A stretch of DNA of 64,000 nt from Oscillospiraceae bacterium (GTDB lineage: Bacteria; Bacillota; Clostridia; Oscillospirales; SIG627). Shown piece after piece: positions 3,288-58,028 of this stretch (position 1 is the stretch's first letter; each line of letters opens with the position of its first letter). Made by a program: the position numbers and the translations under genes. Under the pieces are notes generated by a model. It was not told the origin of the DNA. It made no database searches and saw only the letters and a list, made by a program, of their open reading frames with translations. The stretch covers positions 21,582 to 85,581 of the forward strand of contig SVQQ01000002.1 of NCBI GenBank assembly GCA_015065265.1. The letters run 5' to 3'.

Positions 3288-3303
3288 TTCTTCCTCCGTG
3301 TTT

Positions 3304-4059: not shown

Positions 4060-4084
4060 TTCCCAAAACCTCCTTTTGTTTCTT

Positions 4085-5134: not shown

Positions 5135-5135
5135 T

Positions 5136-41965: not shown

Positions 41966-42949
41966 ATGGAGGAACAGAACGTTAAAAAAATTAAGCTATT
42001 AAAGCTTGTGGAAATATTGCGCGCGGAGACAGATGAACAGAATCCTATGTTAGCAACGGATGTGTGTAAACGTCTCGCGAACAACGGCATAATTGTTCAC
42101 AGGAGAGTTCTTACTCGTGACATTGATATTTTGAACGAGTTTGGATATGAAATTATGTCGACATTGATAGGACACGAAAGGGCATATTACGTTATAGATA
42201 GGAGTTTCAGTGTTCCAGAACTGAAAATACTTATTGACGCGGTGCAGGCAGCAACATTCATAACAGAAAAAAAGACACCAGAACTCGTCGAAAAAATTGC
42301 TGCACTCGGAGGATCACACAGAGCAGAAATAATGCAAGAAAATATTGTGTGTTTTAACACCAGGAAGCACAGCAACGAATCAATTTATTATAACGTTGAT
42401 TGCTTGGAGAACGCAATACAGAATAACAAGAGGGTAATCTTCCTGTATTACGACTTGGACGAACATGGCGAAAAAGTGTATAGGCGTGATGGACACCATT
42501 ACGTAGTGGAGCCAATAGCGCTGGTGTTTAACGACGACAATTATTATCTCTCCTGCTACAGTGCAAAGCATGATGGGACAGCGAACTATCGCGTTGACAG
42601 AATGACAGCAGTAGAGAGCATTGACGAAGAAATCAGTGAAAAGGCGCAGGAGCTTCGTGGTGAGATGGGCTGTTATACCGAGCAGGTATTCAGAATGTAC
42701 GGCGGAGATATAGAAAATGTCACATTGGAACTTGACGATAAGCTCATCGGTGTTATTTACGATAAATTTGGCGAAGAAACAAAGATAATACGTACAGGTG
42801 AAACAACCGTTGCAGCCAGCGTAAAAGTGCAGATAAGCCCGACGTTCTTTGGATGGTTATTCCAGTTTGGAAATCAGATGAAAGTGCTCTCGCCGAGCAG
42901 CGTGGCAAATGATTATAAGAAGCAGGCAAAGGCTGTGCTAACAGAGTGA
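41966..42949 (+). CDS. WYL-domain transcriptional regulator (BrxR/CapW-like: wHTH + WYL + WCX)
   Basis: N-terminal wHTH (KLLKLVEILRAE...TDVCKRL). WYL core RVIFLYYDLDEHGEKVYRRDGHHYVVEPIALVFNDDNYYLSCYSAKHDGTANYRVDRM. C-terminal WCX-like LFQFGNQMKVLSPSS. Confidence 0.85.
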   Translation: MEEQNVKKIKLLKLVEILRAETDEQNPMLATDVCKRLANNGIIVHRRVLTRDIDILNEFGYEIMSTLIGHERAYYVIDRSFSVPELKILIDAVQAATFITEKKTPELVEKIAALGGSHRAEIMQENIVCFNTRKHSNESIYYNVDCLENAIQNNKRVIFLYYDLDEHGEKVYRRDGHHYVVEPIALVFNDDNYYLSCYSAKHDGTANYRVDRMTAVESIDEEISEKAQELRGEMGCYTEQVFRMYGGDIENVTLELDDKLIGVIYDKFGEETKIIRTGETTVAASVKVQISPTFFGWLFQFGNQMKVLSPSSVANDYKKQAKAVLTE

Positions 42950-42962
42950 TAGGAGGATAAAT

Positions 42963-44912
42963 ATGGCTAATTTATCAAAAGAACGCCGCGACCGCATGAT
43001 TGCAAAGCTGGAGGAGCTGAAGTTGCAGCATAACGATGATGCGTCGATTGCAGCACTCAATGAGATTGAAAATGCGTTGCGTGAAAAGAAATATGGTTTG
43101 GTCTGGGAGCAGCACTCCGAGGCCGTTGACGATATGTTAAAAGAAAATATTCCCGTACTCATAGCAGACCCCGAAAGACGCCTCTGCAAGGATGAGAATT
43201 TACCGTGGAATTTCATTATTGAAGGAGATAATCTGCAGGCGCTGTATCTTTTGGAAAAGACACACCGAGGTCGTGTAGACTGCATATACATAGACCCGCC
43301 CTACAACACAGGAGCGCGCGATTGGAAATATAACAACGACTATGTAGACGGTAACGATGAATACCGTCACAGCAAATGGCTATCAATGATGAGGAGCCGT
43401 CTTGTTGTAGCAAAAAGATTGCTCAATCCAAAAGATTCAGTACTCATCGTAACTATTGATGAAAAAGAATATTTGCACCTCGGCTGTTTGCTTGAAGAAA
43501 TGTTCCCCGAAGCAAATATACAGATGATTAGCAGCGCTATTAAACCGTCTGGTTCTACAAGAGAAACACAGTTTTCAAGGGTTGACGAATACATTTATTT
43601 TGTTATGTTAGGCCAGGCATACCCAGAAGACGGATATGTTGATATGCTATATGATGATGCTGAAAATGTTGAAGTCGCTTCAGTTACGTGGCAAGGGTTA
43701 CGCAGACGTGGTAGCGCAGGATGGAAAAGAGAAAATAGTCCAGGCGGATTCTATCCGATTTACATTAGCGTAACGACGGGAAAACTACATTCTGTTGGTG
43801 ACGCGATTCCGCTGGGAGTTGATAGAAACACGGTCATTGCACCAGAGGGAACTTTTTGCGCATGGCCTCTCGACCCTCAGGGTAATGAAGGAAGATGGCA
43901 AGTTAAGCCAGAGCGTTTGAGAGAACAGCTTGAAGAAGGCACAGCATTTCTTAGTAAGTATGATATTGAAAAACAAACCTGTTCCATAAAATATTTAAAA
44001 GATGGTGACAGAAATAGAGTTCTTGGCGGTGAGTTTGATACTAACGGGAGAGATTCGGAAACAGGCGCCTTAATTGTCGTTCCTAAACGTTTGAAAAATA
44101 GACGTCCAAAATCGATGTGGCTTATGAAGACACATGATGCAAGTGCCTATGGTACAGCTCTTTTATCGAAATTTATAGGCGTACAAAAATTTTCATTTCC
44201 CAAGTCTCTTTATGCAGTACAGGATACAATAAGATTTTTTGTATCAAAAAAACCCGAAGCAATTATCGTTGACTTTTTTGCTGGAAGTGGCACAACTCTG
44301 CACGCAGTTAATTTGCTTAACGCAGAAGACGGAGGCAGCCGACGTTGTATAATGGTTACAAACAATGAGGTCAGCGAGACTGAGCAAAAAGAGTTTGAGG
44401 CTCGCGGTGTTAAAAAAGGAGACGCAGAATGGGAAGAACGCGGCATTGCAAAATACGTAACCTGGCCACGTACAGTTTGTAGCATCAATGGTGTTGATGT
44501 AAACGGGGCGTCTATAAATGGCGAATATTTTACAACAGATAGCGAAGGGCTGCCTATTCAAATGTCAGATGGTTTCAAGGCAAATGTAAAATACTTCAAA
44601 TGCGACTGGACGCCGAGAAAGCCGGAAGACTACCTTCTCAGTAATGCGCTATGCTTGCACGTGAAGGAATTGATTGAACTGCAAACGGCTCGCGAAGTTG
44701 ACGGAGTAAAGCAAGTTCTTATTCTTAGCAAGAGTGATTATAAGCGTGTTTTTGAAAATCCGGAAGCAGCGGCATCTGCGGAAAATGTCTGGGTGAATGA
44801 AAACCTTGTATTCAGTTCTGCTGAAATGAGCATTCTGCGAGAAAAGAATTTCCGATATATTCCGCGTGAATATTTTAGCCAGGAATTAAAGGAGGTTGGC
44901 GAATATGTTTAA
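42963..44912 (+). CDS. Type III-like DNA methyltransferase (Mod), beta-class amino-MTase
   Basis: Motif IV IYIDPPYNTGA (about nt 43281-43313) precedes motif I IIVDFFAGSGTTLHAV (about nt 44262-44306), with a variable TRD-sized region between. 8-nt overlap with the res-like gene. Confidence 0.85.
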   Translation: MANLSKERRDRMIAKLEELKLQHNDDASIAALNEIENALREKKYGLVWEQHSEAVDDMLKENIPVLIADPERRLCKDENLPWNFIIEGDNLQALYLLEKTHRGRVDCIYIDPPYNTGARDWKYNNDYVDGNDEYRHSKWLSMMRSRLVVAKRLLNPKDSVLIVTIDEKEYLHLGCLLEEMFPEANIQMISSAIKPSGSTRETQFSRVDEYIYFVMLGQAYPEDGYVDMLYDDAENVEVASVTWQGLRRRGSAGWKRENSPGGFYPIYISVTTGKLHSVGDAIPLGVDRNTVIAPEGTFCAWPLDPQGNEGRWQVKPERLREQLEEGTAFLSKYDIEKQTCSIKYLKDGDRNRVLGGEFDTNGRDSETGALIVVPKRLKNRRPKSMWLMKTHDASAYGTALLSKFIGVQKFSFPKSLYAVQDTIRFFVSKKPEAIIVDFFAGSGTTLHAVNLLNAEDGGSRRCIMVTNNEVSETEQKEFEARGVKKGDAEWEERGIAKYVTWPRTVCSINGVDVNGASINGEYFTTDSEGLPIQMSDGFKANVKYFKCDWTPRKPEDYLLSNALCLHVKELIELQTAREVDGVKQVLILSKSDYKRVFENPEAAASAENVWVNENLVFSSAEMSILREKNFRYIPREYFSQELKEVGEYV

Positions 44913-47181
44913 TGGTACACTTCTTCCATTTCAGGAGAAACACGAAATAAATCTTTTAAAAGCGTGTGCCGAACACAAGCGGCTTGTGCTGCAGGCGCCG
45001 ACTGGCTCGGGAAAAACCGTCCTTGTAACAAAATTTATAGACGATTATCTTGACACAAATCCAGACACTGTGTTCCTTTGGCTGTGCCCAGGAGCAGGCA
45101 GTCTTCAGGATCAGTCGCGCAGTGTTTTTGAACGGTTGACTTCCGGCATTAACGCCGGAGATATATACGATTTTATTGCAGAATATTCCCCTGCGGGTGG
45201 CGTTTACTTTGTCAACTGGGATAAAATTAATAAGTCTACAAACGTTGTTCTGCGAGATGGTGAGGCTAAAAATCTTCTCGAGAAGGTTATAGAATGCAGA
45301 ATGAAGTTAATTGATTTTTTCATGATTGTTGACGAAGAACATCTAAATAAGAAAGCGGCAGAAATGTATGAGAGCATTTTTGACCCAGCACATATTCTTA
45401 GGATTTCCGCAACAACAAGATCGAAGGATGGACACATTGAAGTGGTCAGCGATGACGAAGTTATTACAGCAGGATTAATTGCTTCGGGTATTTCCATAAA
45501 TGAACATTTGACGGAGCACGCAGTTTATAATGATAATTATGTGGACGACCTGTTGCTTCTTCAAATGGCTGATGAAAAGCGCAAAGAAATCCAGGAAGAA
45601 TACGAAAAAAGAGGATTGAATATTAGACCGCTTGTTCTCGTTCAATTCCCGAATGGTAGTGAGGAATGGATTGCAAGAGTAAAAACAGAACTTGCAAACA
45701 TGGGTTACAGCGAGAAAAATGGGCTCGTTACATCTTGGTTTAGTGGTGATCACCCAGAGCAGCCCGAAGAAATAACCAAACTTAATGGTAAATATGCCTT
45801 CCTCCTTTTCAAGCAGGCAATCGCTACAGGGTGGGACTGCCCTCGTGCAAAAATTCTTGTTAAGTTGCGCGAAGGTACCTCGGAGGCATTTGATATTCAA
45901 ACAGTTGGAAGAATCCGTCGTATGCCGGAGCGATGCCATTATGAATCAGAGTTGCTTGACCACTGCTATGTTTATACGCTTGACCAGAAATTCAGTGAAG
46001 GACTTACATCAAGCATTACGGATTCGTTTTATTTGAGTCGCTTCATGAAGAAAGATAATGCGATGAATATGATTCTTGATCGCAAATATCTCGCAGAAAG
46101 CGACCGTCAGGCAGTTGATGAGGAGGCCGTTGTTAAGGCAGTAAGAGCAAAACTGTTGCTCGAGTGCGACCTTGACCAAAATGGATGCTTGAACAAACAT
46201 GAGTTGGCAACAACAAAAGGCTTCACTTTTGGACTGAAACTAAAAACGCGCGCAGTTGAAGGTTTTGCCAGAACAGCGCATGACTTGACTAAACTACAAG
46301 CAGTTTTCTGTGGAGAACATGAAATAAACATACACGATGACGGTTTTATAATTCGTGATGCTAAGAGAAAAATAGCGCAGGCAATCGGAATAGATGAAAA
46401 CATTTCAAGCAAAGCGCTTGCGATTTTGTTTGATGCATCCACGATGAAAATGCCGTTTGCGTACGACGGAACAATTTCCTTCTTCTCGGATGAGGAGATA
46501 GATTTGGATAAAAAGTACAAACTCATTAAAGACATGGGACACAGAGAGTATTGTGCATTTTTAGTAAACAACTGGGAAATTCTTGCGGATATGCTGCGTG
46601 ACATTGATAAAACAGGCATCGAACTTGTTGACACCAAGGTTATTGAATCACCGTGGAGCGTCCCGAAGATGCAGGACTACAAAAAGCACAACGGAAGCAG
46701 GCAGTGCAATATTCTCGAAAAGAATGTGTTCATTGGATACGGTGATGATATACTCGTTCAGCCAAACCGTTCTCAGCCGGAGATTTATTTCGAACAGTGG
46801 TGCGAAATGAACAATGCTGTGGAATGGGTGTATAAGAACGGCGACAAAGGACAAGATTTCTTCTCCATCGTTTATCGCGTAGCATTTAGAAGGTATAATT
46901 TTTACCCAGACTACATCATCAAAATGAAAAATGGTGATGTTTGGATTCTTGAAACAAAAGGTGGCGCAGCGCCAGACGGAACGTCGGCAAACATAGATAA
47001 TTATGCTGCTCAGAAATTTGATGCCTTACGAGAATACGGCGAACAGAACCCAAAAATAAAATGGGGATTTGTTCGTAATTTTGGCGTACAGCTTTACGTT
47101 TCAAATACAATTTGGGATGAAGATTTATTTAATCAGAACGTATGGAAACCCATTAAGGATGTAATCGGTTTCGAAGGTTAA
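44905..47181 (+). CDS. Type III-like restriction subunit (Res): SF2 helicase plus C-terminal PD-(D/E)xK nuclease
   Basis: LQAPTGSGKT (I), MIVDEEH (II), ISATT (III), QTVGRIRR (VI). C-terminal FYPDYIIKMKNGDVWILETKGG. ATG at 44905 follows AAGGAGG. Confidence 0.8.
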   Translation: MFNGTLLPFQEKHEINLLKACAEHKRLVLQAPTGSGKTVLVTKFIDDYLDTNPDTVFLWLCPGAGSLQDQSRSVFERLTSGINAGDIYDFIAEYSPAGGVYFVNWDKINKSTNVVLRDGEAKNLLEKVIECRMKLIDFFMIVDEEHLNKKAAEMYESIFDPAHILRISATTRSKDGHIEVVSDDEVITAGLIASGISINEHLTEHAVYNDNYVDDLLLLQMADEKRKEIQEEYEKRGLNIRPLVLVQFPNGSEEWIARVKTELANMGYSEKNGLVTSWFSGDHPEQPEEITKLNGKYAFLLFKQAIATGWDCPRAKILVKLREGTSEAFDIQTVGRIRRMPERCHYESELLDHCYVYTLDQKFSEGLTSSITDSFYLSRFMKKDNAMNMILDRKYLAESDRQAVDEEAVVKAVRAKLLLECDLDQNGCLNKHELATTKGFTFGLKLKTRAVEGFARTAHDLTKLQAVFCGEHEINIHDDGFIIRDAKRKIAQAIGIDENISSKALAILFDASTMKMPFAYDGTISFFSDEEIDLDKKYKLIKDMGHREYCAFLVNNWEILADMLRDIDKTGIELVDTKVIESPWSVPKMQDYKKHNGSRQCNILEKNVFIGYGDDILVQPNRSQPEIYFEQWCEMNNAVEWVYKNGDKGQDFFSIVYRVAFRRYNFYPDYIIKMKNGDVWILETKGGAAPDGTSANIDNYAAQKFDALREYGEQNPKIKWGFVRNFGVQLYVSNTIWDEDLFNQNVWKPIKDVIGFEG

Positions 47182-47260: not shown

Positions 47261-47686
47261 TTATTCAACAACGGAAATGATGCGCTTCTTCTTCCGCTTG
47301 GCATGTTTAAGAGTGGTAGCAGCGCCGCCCCAGTCATGGCTTACACCAGAAATAACAACATCGGCTTGTTCAACCATCCACTGATTACGCTTAGAAATAG
47401 CAAAGCGCGGTAGAGCGTCCTCAATTGGCGGATAAATACTTCCATCGTATAATTCTGTGTTGTATTCCCTGTTCAAATAAGGAATTATCAAGTAGGATTT
47501 AATTTCGGGATGCGCTGCTTTTGCATCGCGAACAGCGTGCGCGGCCATCGAGTCAAATTCACCATACCCACCACAGTAGAATTCAGTAGCCCCTTCTTCA
47601 ATTAAATCGTTAATATATTTTCGTAGAAGCACATCCACTTCCTTGCAATTTGACATGTGGCTGTGACCGCAGAAAGTAACAATCAT
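47261..47686 (-). CDS. SLOG-superfamily DUF1273/YpsA-like protein
   Basis: MIVTFCGHS...EFYCGGYGEFDSMAAHAV...YLIIPY pattern. ATG at 47684-47686 follows GAGGAGG. Confidence 0.7.
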   Translation of the reverse strand: MIVTFCGHSHMSNCKEVDVLLRKYINDLIEEGATEFYCGGYGEFDSMAAHAVRDAKAAHPEIKSYLIIPYLNREYNTELYDGSIYPPIEDALPRFAISKRNQWMVEQADVVISGVSHDWGGAATTLKHAKRKKKRIISVVE

Positions 47687-47716
47687 AAATGACTCCTCCT
47701 CGTACATACTATATTA

Positions 47717-47736
47717 TATCACCAAAACTTGTGATA
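47717..47736. promoter_or_regulatory. inverted repeat TATCAC-N8-GTGATA in the divergent SLOG/XRE intergenic region (candidate operator)
   Basis: tataTCACcaaaacttGTGAtac read directly. A further TATCAC lies at about 47764. Confidence 0.35.
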
Positions 47737-47810
47737 CGACTTCCACCTCTTCGGTCTAACACTATCACCAAGAATGGAGATATAATATAGTATAGAAATG
47801 AGGTGGTTTT

Positions 47811-48116
47811 GTGAAAATAATAGATAGGTTAAAAGATTTACAACAGCGTCATGGCTGGTCAGATTACAAAATCGCCAAGGAAGCAGGCTTATCCCCTAAC
47901 ACCGTATCGAATATTTATCGCAGAGGCAACACTCCGAGCATGGTAACGCTGGAGGCATTGTGCAAAGCGTTTGGTATAACAATGGCACAGTTTTTTGCAG
48001 AAGGTGAAATGATAGAAATAACACCAGAACTGCGTATGCTTTTTGATAAATGGTCGACACTAACCGAGGAACAGAAAGCAGCGCTTTGGCAAATACTTAA
48101 AACCTACGAAAACTAA
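47811..48116 (+). CDS. XRE-family HTH transcriptional regulator
   Basis: GWSDYKIAKEAGLSPNTVSNIYRRGNTPSMVTLEALCKAFGI is a classic Cro/C1-type HTH. GTG start after GAGGTGG. Confidence 0.8.
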   Translation: MKIIDRLKDLQQRHGWSDYKIAKEAGLSPNTVSNIYRRGNTPSMVTLEALCKAFGITMAQFFAEGEMIEITPELRMLFDKWSTLTEEQKAALWQILKTYEN

Positions 48117-48125
48117 AAAACGTTT

Positions 48126-48154
48126 AATAAGGGCAGCAGGCCCTTATTTTTTTT
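48126..48154 (+). terminator. rho-independent terminator
   Basis: AATAAGGGC-agcag-GCCCTTATT followed by T-run. Confidence 0.8.
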
Positions 48155-48311
48155 ACGTCAAATAGCGCAACAAATGGTGATAAGAACGTAACAATTATAA
48201 CATAAAACAGTGAATTATACAATAGAAACCAAAAAAACATTAAGTTACGGACACAAGGGGAACGATTTCGTGCGCCTTTCCCTCTGAGAGTAAAAACATG
48301 GCTCAATCATA

Positions 48312-48340
48312 TTGACAGAAATAAAAACCGATGCTATAAT
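48312..48340 (+). promoter_or_regulatory. sigma-A-type promoter of the LexA-like repressor gene
   Basis: TTGACA, 17 nt, TGCTATAAT. Confidence 0.55.
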
Positions 48341-48349
48341 ATAAACAAG

Positions 48350-48371
48350 AAGTGAGACAAATATCTCACTT
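48350..48371. promoter_or_regulatory. perfect 8-bp-arm palindrome just downstream of the -10 (candidate operator)
   Basis: AAGTGAGA-caaata-TCTCACTT. Confidence 0.4.
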
Positions 48372-48390
48372 TAACGAAGGAGGCACTTTT

Positions 48391-48999
48391 ATGCGAAGCA
48401 AAAAGAACCCAGAGTACTTGAAGATGTTAGAGGAATTCATTGACGAGTACATAGAAAAGAATCATACAGCACCTACCATATCCGAAATTACCGATGGAGT
48501 TGAATTGCCCCGTTCAACTGTCGGCAGATATATCGCGTATATGCGCGAGCAAGGTGTAATTGATTACGAAGGACATCGTAGCATAACCACGCGCCAGGTG
48601 CAAAAAACGAACAGTGAATCTGTAAAGGTACCGGTGCTCGGTAGCGTTTCATGCGGCGTTCCAAAGCTCGCTATTGAGAACATTGAAGAATATATCCGCC
48701 TGCCCGTCGCCTTGTTCGGCAGGGGAGATTTCTTTATCCTTCGCGCTAACGGTGATTCCATGATAGAAGCAGGAATCGAAGACGGAGACCTCGTCCTTAT
48801 CCGCGTTCAGAACTATGCCGATCCAGGACAGATTGTAGTTGCCTTAATGGACGATGAGGCAACACTTAAACGATTCTATCCCGAACCGGAGAAACGAAGA
48901 ATAAGACTACACCCCGAGAACAGCGCCTTAAAAGACATTTATGTAAAGGAATGCATCATACAAGGAATAGCGGTAAAGGTGCTGAAAGACCTCGAATAA
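48391..48999 (+). CDS. LexA/CI-like S24-peptidase repressor
   Basis: N-terminal wHTH. GDSM catalytic Ser and ATLKRF Lys. Putative cleavage region VSCGVP. ATG at 48391 follows GAAGGAGG. Confidence 0.8.
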   Translation: MRSKKNPEYLKMLEEFIDEYIEKNHTAPTISEITDGVELPRSTVGRYIAYMREQGVIDYEGHRSITTRQVQKTNSESVKVPVLGSVSCGVPKLAIENIEEYIRLPVALFGRGDFFILRANGDSMIEAGIEDGDLVLIRVQNYADPGQIVVALMDDEATLKRFYPEPEKRRIRLHPENSALKDIYVKECIIQGIAVKVLKDLE

Positions 49000-49018
49000 C
49001 AGATTGGAGGATTTATGC

Positions 49019-49210
49019 ATGGAACGTTATGATGTTAAGTGTCCTATTTGCGAGACATTAAACCGCAACCTCGACTTGGAGGATTCAAAAGGCTGGATGG
49101 AATGTGAACACTGCAAAACCGCAAGTAAAGTTTTGGGTGTTCTTCCTAAAGATAAAGTTGTAAAGATACCAGTATACACTATGAAGCAGGCAGCAGCCAT
49201 GATAAGATAA
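49019..49210 (+). CDS. small zinc-ribbon protein (Com-like, tentative)
   Basis: CPIC...CEHC. 63 aa. SD GGAGGA. Confidence 0.45.
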   Translation: MERYDVKCPICETLNRNLDLEDSKGWMECEHCKTASKVLGVLPKDKVVKIPVYTMKQAAAMIR

Positions 49211-49238
49211 AACTATGTGAACGATATAAGGAGTAACG

Positions 49239-49433
49239 ATGCAGAGAATTGATGAATGGGTACCATTCCAATGGCATTGCGTTAACTGCGGGAATATCGT
49301 CACAGGCTTCAAAAATAGCAGAGGCGACATAAAAGTAGAATGTAAAAAGTGTCATACGGTAATGGTCAGAACAATAAAAAATCCTAAAAGAGATACCTTT
49401 CAGGTGTTCGCCCCAGCGGAAGCAGGCGAATAA
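49239..49433 (+). CDS. small zinc-ribbon protein (Com-like, tentative)
   Basis: CVNC...CKKC. 64 aa. SD AAGGAG. Confidence 0.45.
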   Translation: MQRIDEWVPFQWHCVNCGNIVTGFKNSRGDIKVECKKCHTVMVRTIKNPKRDTFQVFAPAEAGE

Positions 49434-49597
49434 AAAGTTAAAATGCTGGTATGCCGACGGCTTGGTTGCATTTCGCGTGATTCCACTGTCCAGGTCACAT
49501 ACCAGAATTGCTTTGAAAAGCTACCCGACGGTTTTGGCAACCGGTTAACCGGCAGATAAGTCCTTAATCATATCAGTAGCAGCGATGTGTGAATTAT

Positions 49598-49665
49598 AAA
49601 GCCATCGACTTAGCAGTTTCTATCCTACGGGATAGGACTGTTTTGTCGGTGGCTTTTTTATTTTA
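49598..49665 (+). terminator. long-stem rho-independent terminator closing a 220-nt non-coding stretch
   Basis: GCCATCGAC...(inner TATCC-tacg-GGATA)...GTCGGTGGC followed by TTTTTTATTTT. Confidence 0.6.
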
Positions 49666-49750
49666 TCTAGTAATACATTTTTCGACAAGTGAATATTATA
49701 AAAATAGAAGCCCGTCGAAAAAAATTAGAAAAAATCGAAAAAACTTTTTT

Positions 49751-49775
49751 GAACTCGACATTAGGTGTCGAGTTC
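49751..49775. promoter_or_regulatory. perfect 10-bp inverted repeat upstream of the HTH gene (candidate operator)
   Basis: GAACTCGACA-ttagg-TGTCGAGTTC. Confidence 0.35.
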
Positions 49776-49820
49776 AGGAGATAAAATTGTGTCAACAAAG
49801 GCAGAAAGGAGGTGCAGAGC

Positions 49821-50162
49821 ATGCGTACTGCAAATGAACGCAGACAACGAATTCTTGAAATTTTGAGTGATAGACGCGAAACAACGCGTAAAGCATTAGC
49901 AACAGAACTTTGCGTATCAACCAGAACAATTGAACGCGATATTGTTGAGCTAACGTGCTCTGCACCGATTTTCACAGTGCAAGGTGGCGGCGGTGGCATT
50001 CGTGTCGCGGACGGATGGTACATAGGCCGCAGATACCTACATAAAGAACAAGAAGAATTGCTTCAGCAACTGATGAACGGACTGCAGCCGGATCAGCAGA
50101 AAACGATGCAAAGTATTCTTGAAGCCTTTGCAATACCTAAAGTAAAGGAGGCAAAGAATTGA
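49821..50162 (+). CDS. HTH-domain protein (DeoR/HTH_11-like N-terminus)
   Basis: RRQRILEILSDRRETTRKALATELCVSTRTIERDIVEL. ATG lies 8 nt after AAAGGAGG. Confidence 0.6.
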   Translation: MRTANERRQRILEILSDRRETTRKALATELCVSTRTIERDIVELTCSAPIFTVQGGGGGIRVADGWYIGRRYLHKEQEELLQQLMNGLQPDQQKTMQSILEAFAIPKVKEAKN

Positions 50163-50476
50163 ATGCAATAAAAGACGGAAACCACATCAAGATTTACGAT
50201 GCATTCCTTATAAAAGAAAGCATCAAAGAAATCAATGGTAGATTTTATGACGCAGATGACAAAGCGTGGGTTGTTCCGCACACAAAAGAAAATGCAGCGC
50301 TGTTAGGACTACTCGGCGTTTCGCTGTCAGATGAGCTCATATCCCCTACGGAAGAAGCCCCCGCACATGACGAAACCCCGATAATACCGATGCCGATAAA
50401 AGCAACACCGTATCAGCATCAGGTGCGAGCATACAACTTCGCACTCAGAGCCTTCGGAATAGGAGGCAAAACATGA
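50159..50476 (+). CDS. N-terminal fragment of a phage-type SNF2 helicase (gene in pieces)
   Basis: Ends with ATPYQHQVRAYNFALRAF, the Q-motif region that normally sits just before the SNF2 Walker A. The stop overlaps the HNH start (ATGA). Confidence 0.5.
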   Translation: MNAIKDGNHIKIYDAFLIKESIKEINGRFYDADDKAWVVPHTKENAALLGLLGVSLSDELISPTEEAPAHDETPIIPMPIKATPYQHQVRAYNFALRAFGIGGKT

Positions 50477-50877
50477 TAGTTGCGTGTGACGAATGTGGTA
50501 AAAGCATTGAAAGAAAGAAACCACGCGAGCATAACTTTTGCTGCGCAAAACACAGAGACATGTGGATGCGGAAGCATTGCGACTTTGCGGGTATATCACG
50601 CGGCCACAAAGCAGAGCATTTAACAAAGCTCAACCGTGAGCGCAACCCGCTATGCAGAGTGGCACCACGCGGAAAAGTCAATTCCAAGAAGGCACGCAGC
50701 ATGGCGGAAGGATATATCGGCAGACCGCTTCGTAAAGGTGAAATAGTACACCATATGAATGGTAAAGCGTCAGACAACAGCCCGCAGAATCTTCTCGTTA
50801 TGACGGACAGGCAGCACAGACAGCTACATATGGCGCTGGCAATGGAACAGATGGAAGGTGGCGATGACGATGAGTAA
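50473..50877 (+). CDS. HNH homing-type endonuclease
   Basis: N-terminal CDECG...CCAKH zinc finger. EIVHHMNGKASDNSPQNLLVMTDRQHRQLH HNH core. Confidence 0.85.
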   Translation: MIVACDECGKSIERKKPREHNFCCAKHRDMWMRKHCDFAGISRGHKAEHLTKLNRERNPLCRVAPRGKVNSKKARSMAEGYIGRPLRKGEIVHHMNGKASDNSPQNLLVMTDRQHRQLHMALAMEQMEGGDDDE

Positions 50878-52984
50878 AGGATGCGCTTTCCTAATGGACA
50901 TGGGTACCGGTAAAACAATTACAACAATTGCCGTAGCAGGAGCATTGAACGGAAAGCATAAAGTAAAGAATTTGCTTGTCGTTTCACCTAAGTCGATTGT
51001 TACTGTGTGGCAGCAGGAGTTTGAAAAATTTGCAGACTTTCCATATCAGCTGGCAGTGCTGGATGGTACCGGCAATAAGAAGGCCGATACTATCAGGTAC
51101 ATGGTAGGCACAGGACTGCAGGTAATCGTTGTGAATTATGAAAGCTGCTGGCGCTTAGAGGATGAGCTCATGCGCTGGAAGCCAGACATGATTGTTTGTG
51201 ATGAGAGCAGCAAGATAAAAAATCCGCAGGCAAAGTGTTCAAAGGCACTACACAAACTTGGTAAGGTCAGTGAATACAACCTCATTCTGACAGGCACACC
51301 GATAACAAACAGCCCGCTCGACTTCTTCAGTCAATACAAGTTTCTTGACGAGACTATATTTGGAAGCAGCTTTTACGCCTTCCGCAGCAAATATGCAATA
51401 CTCGGCGGATTCCAAAATCACCAGATTGTAGGATATAAAAACCTGCAGGAGCTGGTGGAAAAAGCACACGGAATCGCGTATCGAATAAAGCTGGATGAAG
51501 CGGTGGAATTACCGGAGTTCGTTGAGGAGATGCGACCAGTGGAACTGGAGAAAAAGGCGCAGCAGATATATGCTGACCCAGGAATATCAGGCACCAGAGC
51601 AGAAAGACGTCCAGATTTCCTCCGAATGATAGAAGACTGCAGGCAGGGCAAAATACAGAAAGTGCTGGTAAAGTCAATCAGCCGATTCGCAAGAAACACA
51701 GTTGACGCGCTAAACTACATCCGCGAACTGAAAGACTTAAACATAAGCGTATACTTCGAAAACGAAAACATTGACACACTGACACCAGGCGGCGAAGTGC
51801 TACTAACCATACTTGCAGCGATGGCAGAGCAGGAATCGCGTACAATGAGTACAAATATAAAATGGGCGTACAGGAAACGCTTCGAGTCGGGAGAGGTCAT
51901 TCTCAACACAGGGCTGATGCTCGGATACACAAAGGTCGGTAAAGACGAAGAAGGTCACGCAGTATACGAAATAAACGAAGAAGAAGCAGAAATTGTGCGA
52001 CGCATATATCGAGAATATACATCAGGAGCAACACTCTCACGAATCGCGAAAAGACTGGAAGCAGATGGCATACAAACAAAACTTGGCAAACAAGAATGGT
52101 GTGTATCGGTAATCAGGAGCATACTCACAAACGAAAAATACACCGGATGCGCAATACTCGGAAAGACATTCAAACCTGACGTGCTAACAAAGTACAGGCA
52201 GAAAAACACCGGTCAAGCTCCGATGTTCTATACCGAAGGCACTCACCCTGCGATAATCGATAAAGAACTGTTCGAGCTTGCAAAAGACGAGATGCAGCGC
52301 AGACGCGATACGAAAGCAGAAGCAGTCGGAAACACAAGATTCAGCAGCAAATACCCGTTCAGCGGATTGCTAATATGTCACTCCTGCGGACACAAATATC
52401 GTAGACATACAAGAAAAGTCGGTGAGAAAAAGAGAGTTCCTGCATGGGCGTGTGCGTACAAAGTAAATAACGGCAAAGGCTCATGCGAATCTCATCACAT
52501 AAACGAAACGGTCATAGAACAAACATACCTTGCAGCAATAAGACGTATGGTAGAAGATGCCGACGAAATAATTGCCCTGGTAAGAGAAAGCACACAGTTA
52601 GCGATGGAACCTGAAAATGCTGCGGCGATAGCGGCAACGGAACAAGAAATCGTCGAAGTGCAAGAAGCCGTTCTCAAACTTCACAAAGAGAAGCAAGCGC
52701 AGATAGTGAGCTCTGCAGAGTACAACAGGCAAATGTCACAGTACAAAGAAAGGATGCAGACGCTCGAAAGCAAGATGAGTGAACTACAAACCGCAGGAAA
52801 TCGGTACTCGAAAGTAGAAAAATGGTTGGAGGTATTCGCGGAGCATACAAAGAACAGCGAAACAGTCAACGAGATAGACGGAATAATGGTAAAGGCGCTG
52901 GTAGACCATATCATCATAAAGGACACCAGCATGGAAATACACTTCAAATGCGGAGCAACAATAGAACAGGACTACGTAAAATGA
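50858..52984 (+). pseudogene. chimeric ORF: SNF2 helicase ATPase N-lobe (to about 51565) fused in frame to a 5'-truncated large serine recombinase (about 51566-52984)
   Basis: N part: MDMGTGKT (I), VCDESSKIKN (II), LTGTPITNS (III). From IYADPGISGTRAERRPDFLRMIE...SISRFARN...AEQESR onward it is resolvase domain, recombinase domain, zinc ribbon (CHSCGHKY...CAYK) and coiled coil. The first 45 or so aa, which carry the catalytic Ser, are missing. Confidence 0.65.
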
Positions 52985-52988
52985 TAGA

Positions 52989-53030
52989 AGCCCTCGGCAT
53001 CAGAAAACTGGTGCTGAGGGCTATTTTTGT
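52989..53030 (+). terminator. rho-independent terminator
   Basis: AGCCCTCGGCATCAG-aaaa-CTGGTGCTGAGGGCT (two G-U pairs) followed by ATTTTTGTTT. Confidence 0.8.
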
Positions 53031-53091
53031 TTAAAAGAGTAACGAAATCGTTACGTTTAACTGTTAAAGGTGATATTTTCGCTCCGAAAGG

Positions 53092-53120
53092 TTGAAAAAG
53101 ACACAAAATTATGATAAAAT
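53092..53120 (+). promoter_or_regulatory. sigma-A-type promoter of the orphan six-gene operon
   Basis: TTGAAA, 17 nt, TGATAAAAT (extended -10). The track ORF start at 53111 lies inside this promoter. Confidence 0.55.
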
Positions 53121-53158
53121 TAAAAATGTTATTTAAGACTACACAAAGGAGGCGCAAC

Positions 53159-54754
53159 ATGGAAAATAAGACATTTATATCGGAAGTGTCAAACGGAGGA
53201 AATCCAAATCCAAAAGACAATATTTTTGCTGGCATTTGGAAGCAGTACGAAAGAGTTGTGCTTCATAGTTTGATAACGTCATTTGGTCTTGATTTTCTTG
53301 TTCACGACCAGGTTGGCGGAGATGTAGACACAGTTCATGGCGTCCGTGAAGGCATTGCATATAAGAACCCTGATAATGCGGCAGCGTATGAAGCACGCGG
53401 TTATTATGATACAGCGGCATATCATGGCGATGACAGATATAAAATGCGTGTGCAGGAAGCAAGAGCAGCATTTAATAGTGAAGGCATAAGGGTTGAAGAT
53501 GCGTATGTGCCTGGCAGACTTCTCTCTTTTACAAAGGCATCAGCTGTAGGAACAACAGGACGCGCAAACCTTGATCACGTTGTTGCAGCAAAGGAAATAC
53601 ACGAAGACAGAGGCAGAATATTAGCAGGAATAGATGGCGTAGATTTAGCAAACAGTGAATACAATTTGCGTTTCACAAACGAAAACCTTAATAAGTCAAA
53701 AGGTGCTGATTCCGTTGAAGAAGTGCTGAACAGAAAAAGTCATAACTTCGATGGTGAAAAAGGTCGAAAAATACCGGATGAGGTTGCCGATAAAATGCGC
53801 GAGGAAGACAAACAAGCCCGCGCACATATGGACAAAGAAATTGAGACGACATACTATTCGAGCGCACGCTTTTTAGAAGATGCGGCCGTTGCCGCTTGCC
53901 AGCGTGGTGTCGAGATGGGTATGCGACAAGCTGTTGGATTCTATTTTTTAGAAATATGGCTCGCTTGCGAGGAGGAATTTGAAGGCATCAATGCGCATTG
54001 TGAAATAGCGACAGTTATTGCAGCTATAAAAAACGGTGTTGCAAAGGGCTCTGAAAACGCATTAAAAAAATACAAAGAGTTATTCAGAAATTTTGGTGAG
54101 GGATTTGTTGCAGGAGCAATGGCCAGCTTGACAACCACACTTATAAACATTTTTGTAACTACAGACAGGAATACTGCCAGATACATAAGACAGGCATCAG
54201 CAGCAGTCGTTCAGGCGGGAAATATTTTGATCATAAATCCGAACAATTTGCTCATCGGCGAACAGCTGAAAGCAGCCACTGTAACATTAGCTACAGGAGC
54301 GAGTGTCATAGCAGGAACAGCAGCAGGCAGTCTTATAGAAAAGACACCAATATATAAAGTACCGGAAGTCGGCAAATTCGTTCAGATATTCTGTTCGACA
54401 TTGGTCAGCGGATTATTGTCTTGCACGTTACTTATAATGCTTGACAGGAGCAAGTTTATCAATAACCTTGTAGCAGCGCTGAATAAATACGAAGATGAAA
54501 CGCGCAATTATGTGAAGCTGGCAGAAGAATTTTCTCGTATGGCAGCGGAAATGGAAAACTACGATATAGCCACATTCCGTGCTGACGTGATGCGGTTCTA
54601 CGATGTTACATATAGAATTGCTGCAGCGACAAATGAAGAAGAAATGGAGAGAGTTCTGCTTTCCGTTTGCACTATTTTTGATATTGATATGCCCTGGGGT
54701 GAAGATTTAGATAGTTTCATGGGCGATTCAAGCAACAAACTGGTGTTCAACTAA
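53159..54754 (+). CDS. gene A: N-terminal HNH-like (beta-beta-alpha-Me) domain, 3-4 hydrophobic helices, C-terminal helical domain. Function unknown.
   Basis: ATG follows AAGGAGG. LDHVVAAKEIHEDRG...YNLRFTNENLNKSKG (aa 138-182) resembles Cys-less HNH. Hydrophobic segments at aa 314-334, 346-367, 371-392 and 405-428. Confidence 0.65.
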   Translation: MENKTFISEVSNGGNPNPKDNIFAGIWKQYERVVLHSLITSFGLDFLVHDQVGGDVDTVHGVREGIAYKNPDNAAAYEARGYYDTAAYHGDDRYKMRVQEARAAFNSEGIRVEDAYVPGRLLSFTKASAVGTTGRANLDHVVAAKEIHEDRGRILAGIDGVDLANSEYNLRFTNENLNKSKGADSVEEVLNRKSHNFDGEKGRKIPDEVADKMREEDKQARAHMDKEIETTYYSSARFLEDAAVAACQRGVEMGMRQAVGFYFLEIWLACEEEFEGINAHCEIATVIAAIKNGVAKGSENALKKYKELFRNFGEGFVAGAMASLTTTLINIFVTTDRNTARYIRQASAAVVQAGNILIINPNNLLIGEQLKAATVTLATGASVIAGTAAGSLIEKTPIYKVPEVGKFVQIFCSTLVSGLLSCTLLIMLDRSKFINNLVAALNKYEDETRNYVKLAEEFSRMAAEMENYDIATFRADVMRFYDVTYRIAAATNEEEMERVLLSVCTIFDIDMPWGEDLDSFMGDSSNKLVFN

Positions 54755-54774
54755 AATAGTGTGGAGGAAAATTT

Positions 54775-55689
54775 ATGTTTATTATACGATGGATAATAGA
54801 AAAACTCGCAAAATTCTTTTCATCTAAAGCAGGTAAAATTGCTGCTTGGATTGGGGTTGGCGTAGGCGCAGGTGCAGCAGCATACGGCGGTGTAGAGATA
54901 GGTAAAGCTGTGAAATTAAGTAAACGCGCACAGAAAATCAGAGATGAAGCGTTGCAGCGACATGAAGAACATTACAACAAAGTACAAAGCGCATTGGAAG
55001 CAGCCGGCAATAAGAAACTTGCGGTGGTGAAATCTTTTGAAGATTTTGCAAACCAAATGGAAAAGCTACAAGGAAGACCAGAGTTTGCTGATATTATGCC
55101 AAATGACTGTGATTTGCCTAAATTCACAGCAGAAGATTTGAAAGTGATTTCAAACAAAGTCGCGTTAGCAGTTGAAGGCGCAGCATTTGCAGGAGCAGGC
55201 GCAGGGATTGGTATTGCCGCATATGGCTTAAATGTTTTTGCATTCGGACCCGGTGTATTGTTTGCTGGTGTAGGAATACTTGTAGCAGGAGAACACATTA
55301 AGAAGAAAGCCATTGAAAATAACAAACAGGCAAAATTACTTTCAAAAGAAGTAAAGCAGATTGTGGCGCAATATGATGAGCTTACGGATGCGGCAGAAAA
55401 TTTGACGAAGCAGCTTGATGATATTTATTCGCAGTATCAGAGATATTTTGGTAAGATGAAAAAAATACTTGCAAAGAAGACCCAGTGGAACGACCTCGCA
55501 GAAAAGGAACAGCGGGTAATAAAAGATACTGTCATGTTAGTAGGGACATTGTTTGAGCTTTGCAAAATAGAGCTTGTTGTGAAAGAAAGAAAAACGGAAA
55601 GCATCAATACTGAAGCAGTCAAAAAGTCAGAAGTTACAGTAGATAAGACATTGAAACGAACAAAAAAGAAGTTTTTAATCTTCGGATAA
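54775..55689 (+). CDS. gene B: glycine-zipper/coiled-coil membrane protein, function unknown
   Basis: SD GGAGGA. G/A-rich hydrophobic segments at aa 21-40 (AAWIGVGVGAGAAAYGG) and aa 129-172 (AFAGAGAGIGIAAYGLNVFAFGPGVLFAGVGILVAG), separated and followed by charged helical regions. Confidence 0.6.
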   Translation: MFIIRWIIEKLAKFFSSKAGKIAAWIGVGVGAGAAAYGGVEIGKAVKLSKRAQKIRDEALQRHEEHYNKVQSALEAAGNKKLAVVKSFEDFANQMEKLQGRPEFADIMPNDCDLPKFTAEDLKVISNKVALAVEGAAFAGAGAGIGIAAYGLNVFAFGPGVLFAGVGILVAGEHIKKKAIENNKQAKLLSKEVKQIVAQYDELTDAAENLTKQLDDIYSQYQRYFGKMKKILAKKTQWNDLAEKEQRVIKDTVMLVGTLFELCKIELVVKERKTESINTEAVKKSEVTVDKTLKRTKKKFLIFG

Positions 55690-55717
55690 AAGCGGTTTCA
55701 ACTGCAGGAGGAATAAC

Positions 55718-56836
55718 ATGATTTATAAAAATACAGGATTCAGGGCGTTATATAAGAATTTTTGCGCCTTTCCATTAACAGATAAATATAGAGAATGCAT
55801 GAAAGAGTACCCGAATATAGAGCAGGCAAACTGCATGCTGGTATATGGCTACATAGACACAGAAGCAGGATTGACGCTTGAAGTTCTCGCAGCAGGATAC
55901 CAGGAAGACGATAGTTATCGTTTCTTTGATGGAAGCGATAGAACACGTTTCTTTATTCGCGTAGGAGCCGTTGAAAATGAGGAGTTCGGATATTTCGGTG
56001 ATAACGAAGATTTTCGTAAGCGCTATGCAGAAAAGCTGGATATGATAAAAGACTATGCTGCAGATGAAGAAGTTGAAAAATCACGCGAAATGGGCTTCCT
56101 CGATGGCAGCAGGCATCCGCATTATCCAGACGACGTACAGGTGCTTTTGGTAAGAGAAGGATTTAATACGGAGGCGTGCTGGGTGCGCATAGTCGGGCTT
56201 GGTGAACATTGGATAATGGGTACTTTGCTCAATGAGCCGGAGCAGGCATTTGGATATCACATAGGAGAAAAGATAGCATTTTTCGTACAGGAAAATGCAG
56301 ATAAAGAGGTCATTTGCTATTCGGATATGACACCGAGCAAAAAACTCACAGCAGAGGATTTAGCAGATGGAACTATGCTGAAGGCAGCAGTAAAGACATT
56401 CAACGAAGAAAGAACAGAGCCACATTTTATTGAAGTGCTTGAATTGCTTCGTGACAGTTATGTTTGGATTCCTTGTAACGCTGTGCTTGGAGAAGCAGAT
56501 ATAGCAGCAATGCAAAAAGCTATCGACGAAGCAGGCGACGACCTTTCGTCTATGGTAGGACAGACATTTACAAACACAGAGAACATAAGAATGGTGCCGG
56601 ATATATTGCAGAACGGCAACGACTTTTTCTTCCCGATATTCTCAAGCTGTGAAGAAATGGGCGAATACGGACAAGGCTTCTCAAAGGTTGAAAAGCATTT
56701 TATGGAGGCACTGACGATGGCAGTTAACAATGACCGAGATTTAAAAGGTATCGTGTTAAATGCTTTTTCGGAACCGTTCATACTCGATAAGGAAATATTT
56801 GATATAGTACAAAACATGAAATCACGTATAGAATAA
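55718..56836 (+). CDS. gene C: DUF2314-like plus SseB-like two-domain protein (tentative)
   Basis: SD AGGAGG. ACWVRIVGLGEHWIMGTLLNEPEQAFGYHIGEKIAFF resembles DUF2314. The C-terminal half (VWIPCNAV...FFFPIFSSCEEM...LNAFSEPFIL) resembles the SseB family. Confidence 0.55.
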   Translation: MIYKNTGFRALYKNFCAFPLTDKYRECMKEYPNIEQANCMLVYGYIDTEAGLTLEVLAAGYQEDDSYRFFDGSDRTRFFIRVGAVENEEFGYFGDNEDFRKRYAEKLDMIKDYAADEEVEKSREMGFLDGSRHPHYPDDVQVLLVREGFNTEACWVRIVGLGEHWIMGTLLNEPEQAFGYHIGEKIAFFVQENADKEVICYSDMTPSKKLTAEDLADGTMLKAAVKTFNEERTEPHFIEVLELLRDSYVWIPCNAVLGEADIAAMQKAIDEAGDDLSSMVGQTFTNTENIRMVPDILQNGNDFFFPIFSSCEEMGEYGQGFSKVEKHFMEALTMAVNNDRDLKGIVLNAFSEPFILDKEIFDIVQNMKSRIE

Positions 56837-56850
56837 AAAAGGAGGCAGCC

Positions 56851-57240
56851 ATGGGACAAGGATACACATTGTGTTGTGAACAGTGTGAATACAGCGTAGA
56901 ATACCTGCAGGGCGTTGGTTTTTTGTTTTACAAAGAAGCCGAGGATATACTTGCGGATATGAAAGCAGGCAAAATGGGAAAAGGTTTCATGGAAGCCGCA
57001 AACAACGCTGCAGCGCCAACAATTAACCATTCCCGCGAATTATACAAGTGTACAAAGTGCGGTGAGCTTAGACCGGATATGCACATAGAGCTTTATGACG
57101 GTGAAACCGTAGTAAAAGAAAAGCAGCATGTATGTGGTAAGTGCCGGAGCAGCATGCGCATTGTTAAAAACATAGATAAAATAAAGTGTCCCCGATGCGG
57201 CAAGAAACTTGAACTTGCAGGAATTCTCATGTGGGATTAA
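56851..57240 (+). CDS. gene D: double zinc-ribbon protein
   Basis: SD AAGGAGG. Four CxxC pairs (CEQC, CTKC, CGKC, CPRC). Confidence 0.6.
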   Translation: MGQGYTLCCEQCEYSVEYLQGVGFLFYKEAEDILADMKAGKMGKGFMEAANNAAAPTINHSRELYKCTKCGELRPDMHIELYDGETVVKEKQHVCGKCRSSMRIVKNIDKIKCPRCGKKLELAGILMWD

Positions 57241-57254
57241 GGCTGGTGAGACAA

Positions 57255-57683
57255 ATGGATATAATAAAAATAATAATTAAAGGTGCATCAGGTTATGGCT
57301 CCGTAGACGATGCTTATGATGATAAGCTCATACTGACAGATTCATCCATTAGTTACGAATATATACCACATCCCATGAGCCAGTCAGAAATAAACGTTCA
57401 TCAAAAATGGGCATACAAAACCGACAGTCCGTTGTTTAAATGCATTTTCAAAGCGATAGCAGCCAAGACCCCCGAGTATTTGCATAGCGACGAAATATTG
57501 TTTGCATATGATATAGGACCCACAATCATAACGGCAACCTACGAAGACAAACATAGAGAAACGGTAACATATTTTTGTCCGAGTGAGTATTTTGTGGAAT
57601 ACTTTCAGTTGATAAAAAAGCTGGTGCCTCCGTGTGAAGACGTGCCAGAACTACTTAAAACAAGAGAAGATTATGAGGAATAA
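57255..57683 (+). CDS. gene E: hypothetical protein
   Basis: ORF in an operon context. ATG 57255 is preferred over the GTG at 57231 that overlaps gene D. No motif recognised. Confidence 0.5.
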   Translation: MDIIKIIIKGASGYGSVDDAYDDKLILTDSSISYEYIPHPMSQSEINVHQKWAYKTDSPLFKCIFKAIAAKTPEYLHSDEILFAYDIGPTIITATYEDKHRETVTYFCPSEYFVEYFQLIKKLVPPCEDVPELLKTREDYEE

Positions 57684-57698: not shown

Positions 57699-58028
57699 AT
57701 GATTACAAAGGTTATATTTGGTAATATTAGAAAGGAGCGCCAGGAGGATTGGCACAAAAACGACGAAAATCCTTACGCTGTAGTTGACGAAATATATGAA
57801 GTGCCGGAGGCATACACAGAAATTTTGGAATACGGAAAAACGCATTTCAGCGACCCGATTAACGTAGACTGGGGTAGCTGCGCGTGGAAATGTACCTATG
57901 ATGAATTTGTAGCGTACTTAAAACATTACAAATTCAAGGTGCCGGCAGAAATAGAAAACATAGATAAAGATAAAACATACGGGATTATATTCATAGAGGA
58001 AGTGGGTTACAGCGATGTGTACGAATGA
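57699..58028 (+). CDS. gene F: hypothetical protein
   Basis: SD AAGGAGGG. 109 aa. No motif recognised. Confidence 0.5.
   Translation: MITKVIFGNIRKERQEDWHKNDENPYAVVDEIYEVPEAYTEILEYGKTHFSDPINVDWGSCAWKCTYDEFVAYLKHYKFKVPAEIENIDKDKTYGIIFIEEVGYSDVYE

Follow-up and report, generated by a model that had tools for sequence, protein, structure and literature searches.

SNIPE (PD-lambda-1) is bound to the membrane and cleaves phage DNA while this is being injected; it is a single protein made up of a poorly conserved single transmembrane (TM) helix at the N-terminus, a DUF4041 domain and a C-terminal GIY-YIG nuclease domain (bioRxiv 10.1101/2025.11.03.685801). Further systems of relevance are catalogued in PADLOC, where the 145 PDC candidates were gathered through 'guilt by embedding' in BREX, DISARM and type I restriction-modification (R-M) loci and include PDC-M40, a three-gene cassette of which a two-gene form exists, and PDC-M09, a cassette of two genes (bioRxiv 10.1101/2024.01.29.577857). 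Here we describe a stretch of 64,000 nucleotides (nt) from an Oscillospiraceae bacterium (contig SVQQ01000002.1, positions 21,582 to 85,581; hereafter the window), in which two adjacent genes on the forward strand, called A and B below, encode a distant relative of PDC-M40B and a relative of PDC-M09A. Domain identities, the conservation of catalytic residues, operon structure and synteny, mobility and defence-island context were all computed, and on balance we lean slightly towards reading A-B as an autonomous operon of two genes, carried by a 2.6-kb mobile cassette that would encode a membrane-embedded anti-phage or anti-plasmid nuclease system. The architecture, with an HNH domain, a membrane module and an obligate partner, is in our view very probable; a role in defence is probable.

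The gene A protein matches the PDC-M40B profile with E = 2.9e-30 across profile positions 17-504 of 547, and nine diverse members of its family all matched PDC-M40B only. This likeness is a distant one, at 103 bits versus about 200 for proteobacterial members. Gene B is related to PDC-M09A and, also in PADLOC, to the C-terminal part of LeoBC, a bacterial dynamin-like protein (PMC4159319); the window copy matches PDC-M09A weakly (E = 8.8e-4), while orthologues elsewhere reach 6e-33 to 3e-16. The gene A family comprises 510 matches in a collection clustered at 90% and 1208 representatives at 50% identity, 413 of the latter with E <= 1e-30, and it extends over Clostridia, Bacteroidota, Desulfovibrio, Treponema and Proteobacteria. 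Its members are named 'cobalamin adenosyltransferase' in GenBank/RefSeq and the relatives of gene B 'chemotaxis protein' (L013, L014, L095, L096), and neither name is supported by any profile search made here: for ATP:cob(I)alamin adenosyltransferase there was no Pfam or NCBIfam match in the window protein and no Pfam match in 61 family members and the further members scanned. Correcting both wrong names would tidy many genome records.

In the open reading frame (ORF) list, gene A appears as 53111..54754 (+). An initial annotation of this DNA, made from the sequence alone, had begun the gene at ATG 53159, and this start is borne out by an AGGAGG 6 nt upstream, by the 531-amino-acid (aa) gene-caller products on record and by the starts of homologues. 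ATG 53111 was rejected as the start, since it falls within a promoter-like site, the best one in the region and placed just inside the A-B cassette (Table 1).

Concerning the N-terminal part of the protein, the initial annotation had drawn attention to residues 138-182 (nt 53570-53704), described as an HNH/EndoVII-like motif without zinc cysteines, and to GGDVDTVHG upstream (residues 53-61, nt 53315-53341), both of which match the sequence exactly as quoted there. The D-H...N...N motif lies far above chance and recurs family-wide as LDH..SA.EIH.D.GR.LAG..G..LAN...NL..T....N.SK, with D139-H140, H148, D150, R153, N165, N169, T173 and N178 as the key residues of the putative core. Over 344 aligned family members, conservation is 100% at H140, N169 and N178 and 98% at D139 (the rest being Glu), followed by D114 (99%), T173 (98%), D150 (98%) and R153 (96%). 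The acidic N-terminal extension, with D50 and GGD-x-D as its motif, is also conserved (D50 97%, G53 99%, G54 100%, D57 94%). One detail needed correction: N179A had been put forward as a mutant target, and residue 179 is a Lys, the conserved last Asn being N178.

Because the membrane half of a full-length AlphaFold2 (AF2) model was of low confidence (the model was confident only at residues ~55-240) and Foldseek with that model returned noise only, the N-domain was modelled alone. This model covers residues 20-240, rests on a 61-sequence alignment across several phyla (model residue + 19 = protein residue) and has a predicted local distance difference test score (pLDDT) of 91.5 and a predicted template modelling score (pTM) of 0.82. 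In it, a strand at 135-140 ends at D139-H140, a strand at 170-174 opens at N169-L170 and a helix at 175-181 bears N178, with three short helices inserted between the two HNH strands; the same beta-beta-alpha-Me core elements are present in the full-length model. When the N-domain was compared with the PDB by Foldseek, 27 of the 31 matches (E < 10) were Cas9 HNH domains or Vvn/endonuclease I, His-Me finger nucleases throughout, and against BFVD the family's own member in Aeromonas phage LAh10 came first (E = 1.6e-11), followed by small phage HNH endonucleases with a probability of up to 0.99. Profile alignment by hhalign against the SpCas9 HNH segment, which is 100% identical to PDB Cas9 chains, gave P = 0.001 and paired D139/H140/N169/T173/N178 with SpCas9 D839/H840/N854/T858/N863, leaving a 15-residue insertion in gene A. 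Below threshold, GmrSD_C was matched in 6 of the 61 members (best E = 0.004) and HNH_4 in 2 (0.058), and a Klebsiella homologue matched the SspE C-terminal region with E = 3.7e-4. All these tests agree, none of them being formally significant, and they suggest that the N-domain is a cysteine-free HNH domain of DUF1524/Cas9 flavour with all canonical catalytic positions present. The proposed beta-beta-alpha-Me fold is consistent with the predicted topology, the Foldseek lists, the hhalign pairing and the full conservation of H140, N169 and N178; like the reading as a membrane protein, it withstood all computational tests that were run. As to the subtype, an HNH domain without zinc cysteines stands, and its nearest flavour is DUF1524/Cas9 and not EndoVII.

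Behind ~75 aa of amphipathic helices follows a conserved hydrophobic module with four uncharged runs of 21-23 residues each (315-335, 345-367, 372-393 and 407-428), which coincide with AF2 helices 305-335, 337-359, 366-394 and 405-430. In rough Hessa-scale sums over 19-residue windows, 410-428 reaches -1.2, 316-334 +2.4 and 375-393 +3.1, compared with an N-domain median of about 24; segment 410-428 would therefore be clearly of membrane grade, 316-334 and 375-393 marginal, and 345-367 polar with a conserved Pro. Family-wide, charged residues make up 0.4%, 8% and 0.6% of three module segments and 14.5% of the less hydrophobic segment 342-360. Mean conservation is 0.525 in the module, against 0.604 in the HNH core and 0.29 in the tail, the least conserved part of the protein; N330, a polar residue inside the first module helix, R344, just before the second, and G319 are each 99% conserved, and P361 is 95% conserved. 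The four hydrophobic stretches and charged helical tail noted initially were thus recovered, as four uncharged runs followed by ~100 aa of tail, while an 'integral-membrane-like C-terminal half' proved a loose description of a module that is present and confined to aa 313-430.

Membrane association is supported by this uncharged, strongly conserved module and by relatives with extensions that are membrane- or envelope-linked additions. Among long gene A relatives no fusion of A to B was found; OmpA and DUF1232 extensions turned up instead. In P0174 the tail is followed by a helix of strong hydrophobicity and then by a peptidoglycan-binding domain of the OmpA family (E = 5.5e-7, above threshold), and P0224 ends in DUF1232. 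An OmpA domain must sit in the periplasm, and with one helix between it and the tail in P0174, the tail should therefore be cytoplasmic; an even number of passes through the membrane would then put the HNH domain on the same side. This location is the most likely one and agrees with the lack of a signal peptide ahead of the 310-aa N-terminal region. Most simply, the module can be read as two membrane hairpins, although a soluble state of the gene A protein, in which a hydrophobic hairpin is buried as in colicins, may also exist.

Gene B encodes a protein with hydrophobic Gly-rich segments and long helical or coiled-coil regions, in which a Pfam scan yielded only scattered coiled-coil, BAR-like and membrane-anchor noise; it is a membrane-anchored coiled-coil protein and presumably assembles with A. 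A search with the GGD-x-D motif as pattern found 188 genomic relatives of gene A, and the ORFs of 80 genomic loci with this motif, together with further loci, were scanned with locally built hidden Markov models (HMMs). A homologue of B adjoins gene A on the same strand in 75 of the 76 loci with enough downstream flank. A YkgJ-type CxxCxxCC protein of ~83 aa is also present in 54 loci, mostly between A and B, and 21 loci, among them those of the window's clade, have B adjacent without YkgJ; a WYL regulator is nearby in 31 of 87. The partner lies upstream of the nuclease gene in Enterobacteria and Aeromonas phages, the enterobacterial order being WYL - partner - HNH/TM - YkgJ. Together with the synteny, the promoter-like site, the Shine-Dalgarno sequences and the 20-nt gap between the genes point to co-transcription of A and B as a two-gene operon. 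By hhalign, A aa ~363-484 aligned with B aa 111-232 (P = 3e-4, probability 40%) and the first hairpin of A with its second (a weak P = 6.5e-4), matches that are perhaps compositional and are not relied on; the second hydrophobic hairpin of A with its following helix and the Gly-rich hairpin of B with its own could represent a shared module or similar composition.

The A-B cassette is mobile. By blastn against L015 and L016 it forms one block of 2605 nt, 84-87% identical, which ends exactly at 53086 and 55690 and is flanked by unrelated DNA. Relatives occur on 71 plasmid records from Klebsiella, E. coli, Clostridioides difficile and others, and in four Aeromonas jumbo phages (LAh10, D3, D6 and D9) of ~260 kb that carry the partner + HNH/TM pair, at 2949-5545 in LAh10 (L014); the phage copies suggest a use in phage-phage competition or superinfection exclusion. 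The enterobacterial version is found in 386 of 5426 complete E. coli genomes (7%), always on the chromosome. Genes for R-M, SIR2, PARIS, Qat and Cas proteins adjoin the relatives, and among 131 neighbour proteins from 27 loci there were matches to MADS, PDC-S01, AriA, PsyrT, QatC/D, Cas6, a type I methyltransferase and RT_VI. The E. coli 1303 operon (EC1303_RS19875-RS19865) has hsdRMS, a SIR2 gene and the remnant of an integrase as its neighbours; in other E. coli copies a YkgJ gene comes after the nuclease gene. In L005 the A-B pair lies directly upstream of a WYL / PLD-helicase / methyltransferase system. A membrane-localised sensor or effector, as initially suggested for gene A, is supported by these computations; the partner gene and the defence context had been missed.

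The mechanism that we infer from these data, in topology, A-B complex, nuclease activity, defence role and site of action, would run as follows. Gene A protein would consist of a cytoplasmic Cys-free HNH nuclease (aa ~45-235), four hydrophobic helices and a cytoplasmic helical tail; gene B protein, joined in most relatives by the YkgJ-type protein, would assemble with it at the membrane, and the complex would keep the nuclease at the inner membrane face. There it would cleave DNA arriving by phage injection or conjugation, and the chromosome would be spared through confinement to the membrane or through gating by the module and B. That A-B cuts incoming DNA specifically is a tentative proposal, more doubtful than not. 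Equally speculative is the further idea that the module, together with the coiled-coil protein B, senses or gates the passage of DNA across the membrane and licenses the attached HNH domain to cut only entering DNA, which would make A-B a new class of membrane immunity.

Several findings weigh against this proposal. Neither gene A nor gene B reached the threshold of any model in Pfam, NCBIfam and PHROG scans, the window gene A protein matched no curated HNH profile at the Pfam gathering score, Foldseek with the gene A models retrieved no unrelated protein at E <= 0.001 (E-values 0.09-10), and the literature contained no paper describing the domains or mechanism of the family. Three of the four module segments are only marginally hydrophobic, the module was modelled poorly (pLDDT 40-70), and positive-inside counts by eye favour neither orientation; because it is strongly conserved, unlike the variable anchor of SNIPE, the module may do more than tether. 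The defence-gene neighbours are a raw association, and PDC systems are candidates only. Nor did their other components turn up: no PDC-M40A or PDC-M40C was seen among gene B, partners elsewhere and YkgJ-like proteins (E limit 10 or 0.01, where HMMER filters discard most matches above about 0.1 even at the limit of 10), and PDC-M09B had no match in gene A, its homologues or the scanned neighbours. Because these components were not found among the scanned proteins, the locus falls outside the PADLOC definitions of PDC-M40 and PDC-M09. Neither the gene A protein nor a 61-sequence profile brought up anything meaningful in sequence searches of the PDB, and the DefensePredictor text does not mention the gene A family.

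The main rival, which we hold to be unlikely, is that A-B is an abortive-infection effector: the helices would be a latent pore or membrane-disrupting module with which A, together with B, depolarises the membrane on sensing infection, and the HNH domain would degrade host and phage DNA indiscriminately or act as a DNA-sensing trigger. Membrane-disrupting effectors are common in defence, as with the TM effectors of CBASS and Pycsar, and the module is nearly as conserved as the active site, with N330 and R344 invariant, which is more than a passive anchor requires. Its helices are long, rich in Gly, Ala, Ser and Thr and flanked by amphipathic segments, the low model confidence is expected of a switching domain, and gene B has Gly-zipper-like hairpins. 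Yet the catalytic HNH residues are invariant, which argues that nuclease chemistry is under selection; constitutive insertion is expected, since segment 410-428 has a negative insertion sum, and PDB sequence and Foldseek searches gave no significant similarity to a known pore-former. A dead HNH-like domain, serving as a DNA- or ligand-binding module of a membrane sensor or scaffold, could be argued from the lack of an HNH Pfam model at threshold and from the 15-residue strand insertion and extra acidic N-terminal motif, which depart from canonical HNH; with D139, H140, N169 and N178 98-100% conserved across phyla, a pattern typical of active enzymes, we regard it as very unlikely.

A role outside immunity is improbable, although not negligibly so. 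The system might be a maintenance or competition module of mobile elements, or a DNA-processing device at the membrane, examples being addiction or toxin-like killing, entry exclusion, and processing in DNA uptake or export, as may be argued from a mobile cassette carried by conjugative and other plasmids and by jumbo phages, from a window copy in a decayed integrated element beside a truncated serine recombinase and from the existence of membrane-anchored beta-beta-alpha-Me uptake nucleases, EndA and NucA, in competent Gram-positives. Against this, the gene A nuclease is most likely cytoplasmic and not outward as in EndA/NucA, no conserved competence or conjugation genes adjoin A-B, and what recurs in its neighbourhood is WYL regulators and defence genes; moreover, if entry exclusion worked through cleavage of incoming DNA, it would in practice coincide with the mechanism we favour. 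The slightest chance of all is given to a polymorphic-toxin-like locus with gene A as toxin and, as immunity genes, an SseB-domain gene (55718-56836, E = 1.6e-9) and a gene with a weak Imm6 match (57699-58028, E = 0.006, below threshold) downstream. We reject it because these neighbours are not conserved with the cassette: both lie outside it, the downstream genes vary, and the SseB-domain gene is absent from the otherwise collinear L015 and L016. For the same reason the comparison with polymorphic toxins made in the initial annotation leads no further. In addition, gene A lacks an LXG, WXG, RHS or other trafficking domain in Pfam and NCBIfam and lacks a signal peptide, its nuclease is N-terminal, and the conserved neighbour B is a membrane protein and not a small cytosolic immunity protein.

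If A-B is a defence system, a large family (at least 1200 clusters at 50% identity, in many phyla) would join the few immune systems that act at the membrane. As such, A-B would also test the generality of the SNIPE principle that location, and not sequence or modification, marks foreign DNA. Should the idea of a gated nuclease hold, A-B would be, beside SNIPE, a second way of telling self from non-self by place, independent in its mechanism; it would be widespread, in E. coli, gut Clostridia, Bacteroidota, plasmids and jumbo phages, and would have escaped notice under the two wrong names. The enterobacterial version stands next to classical defence genes, so that standard phage panels can put the proposal to a direct test.

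In the window, the cassette lies within a chromosomal island, with rpoBC and the EF-Tu/EF-G genes at 20-32 kb; the island also holds an R-M system of WYL, Mod and Res genes, a LexA-like repressor and a truncated serine recombinase. The R-M system, type III-like and ~6 kb upstream of the cassette (41966-47181, +), consists of a WYL/WCX regulator, an N6/N4 DNA methyltransferase (649 aa) and a ResIII helicase (761 aa), and its WYL gene shares 69% DNA identity with the one located after A-B in L005. Preceding it on the minus strand (40705-41775) is a gene for a 356-aa protein that couples a DNA/RNA non-specific endonuclease domain (Endonuclea_NS_2) to an Ada-type zinc-binding domain at its C-terminus; the window thus encodes a second nuclease of the His-Me type. 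Between the R-M system and an SNF2 gene, 47261-50162 contains a YpsA/SLOG-family gene (minus strand), a LexA-like S24 peptidase repressor, small zinc-ribbon ORFs and an HTH_11 protein, a gene set that fits a degraded prophage or integrative element; the stand-alone HTH_11 protein (49812-50162) matches a locally built WYL-type regulator HMM and resembles the N-terminal part of such a regulator.

Immediately upstream of the cassette, a 708-aa ORF (50858-52984, +) joins an SNF2 helicase N-terminal half in frame to a large serine recombinase at ...KKAQQIY|ADPGISG..., the recombinase being without about its first 23 profile positions, catalytic serine included, and no RVSxxQ motif is found in the other frames of the same strand. 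The fusion resembles the scar of a deletion, bordering a decayed integrated element with the A-B cassette among its cargo. Directly before the SNF2 gene is a canonical HNH_3 endonuclease (50473-50877, +; E = 1.6e-8), unrelated to the HNH domain of gene A, and this HNH_3 + SNF2 pairing looks phage-like. Downstream lie a zinc-ribbon gene (56851-57240) and a 150-aa gene (57231-57683). Both are found with the cassette in L016, and L015 has just the 150-aa gene after it; in L017 the match is limited to a part of the zinc-ribbon gene and lies upstream of gene A. Together with the SseB-domain gene, these genes (55718-57683, +) look like variable accessory genes.

Table 1. Features of the A-B cassette and its left boundary (positions in the window).
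Feature	Position	Strand	Basis
Cassette A-B, conserved and mobile	53086..55690	+	blastn vs L015, L016: one 2605-nt block
Intrinsic-terminator-like hairpin; ends the upstream SNF2::recombinase ORF, left outer boundary	52989..53022	+	15-bp stem, 9 G-C pairs, T-run
Promoter-like site TTGAAA, 17-nt spacer, TAAAAT, upstream TG	53092..53120	+	consensus match only, 10/12 positions
Shine-Dalgarno AGGAGG of gene A	53147..53152	+	direct reading; 6 nt before ATG 53159
Gene A, 531-aa HNH-plus-membrane-module protein, distant PDC-M40B relative	53159..54754	+	PADLOC, ORF list, family searches
Conserved N-terminal helix and acidic loop, aa 20-65, with D50 and GGDVDTVHG	53216..53353	+	conservation in 344 members
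Predicted Cys-less HNH (beta-beta-alpha-Me) core, aa 131-185	53549..53713	+	motif, model, Foldseek, hhalign, conservation
Predicted hydrophobic membrane module, aa 313-430, four uncharged helices	54095..54448	+	AF2, charge runs, conservation
Charged helical C-terminal tail, aa 431-531, terminal PW-x-GDFD-x-FM	54449..54751	+	AF2, conservation
Gene B, 304-aa partner	54775..55689	+	own ribosome-binding site GGAGGAA; 20-nt gap after gene A
Gene B Gly-rich hydrophobic helix, aa 22-40	54838-54894	+	sequence
Gene B 38-residue uncharged Gly-rich hairpin, aa 135-172	55177-55290	+	sequence

As for the catalogued candidates, PADLOC lists no system in which an M40B-like protein is paired with an M09A-like one; what PDC-M40 and PDC-M09 share with the relatives of A-B is their context in BREX, DISARM or type I R-M loci. 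With the HNH domains of GmrSD, BrxU, SspE and Cas9, gene A has in common the Cys-less D-H ... N-x3-T-x4-N motif, and it differs from the DUF1524/Cas9 type in the 15-residue strand insertion, the acidic motif (D50, GGD-x-D), D114 and the fusion to a membrane module. Membership in the GmrSD/BrxU/SspE group was rejected, as no match to its N-terminal DUF262 NTPase domain (DGQQR) was found in the window protein, the 61 members or the further long members; the likeness to DUF1524 is confined to the HNH part. EndA and NucA are membrane-anchored beta-beta-alpha-Me nucleases of competence, with an N-terminal anchor, facing outward and belonging to the DNA/RNA non-specific endonuclease family. A membrane-tethered His-Me nuclease has precedent; that of gene A differs in being HNH/DUF1524-like, placed ahead of the membrane module and most likely cytoplasmic, with no linked competence genes.

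Zorya and Kiwa resemble A-B in combining a membrane complex with a DNA-directed effector and in the coiled-coil or long helical cytoplasmic parts of the membrane partner. Type II Zorya uses an HNH protein, ZorE, and the partner of a Pseudomonas homologue gave weak ZorA matches (E = 3e-4). A-B was not assigned to Zorya, there being no MotA/ExbB or OmpA/MotB match in the window A or B; moreover, the effector is recruited in Zorya and Kiwa, whereas the gene A nuclease is covalently part of the membrane protein. SNIPE is the nearest precedent in function and an analogue in function only, gene A having no DUF4041 or GIY-YIG (T5orf172) match in Pfam or PADLOC and being unrelated to it in sequence and architecture. 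The concept shared with it would be that a nuclease is kept at the inner membrane, its catalytic part facing the cytoplasm, which allows a spatial discrimination between self and non-self. Gene A departs from it in its N-terminal HNH domain, in the conserved four-helix module near the C-terminus and in the obligate partner, and the last two suggest a sensing or gating step that SNIPE does not have.

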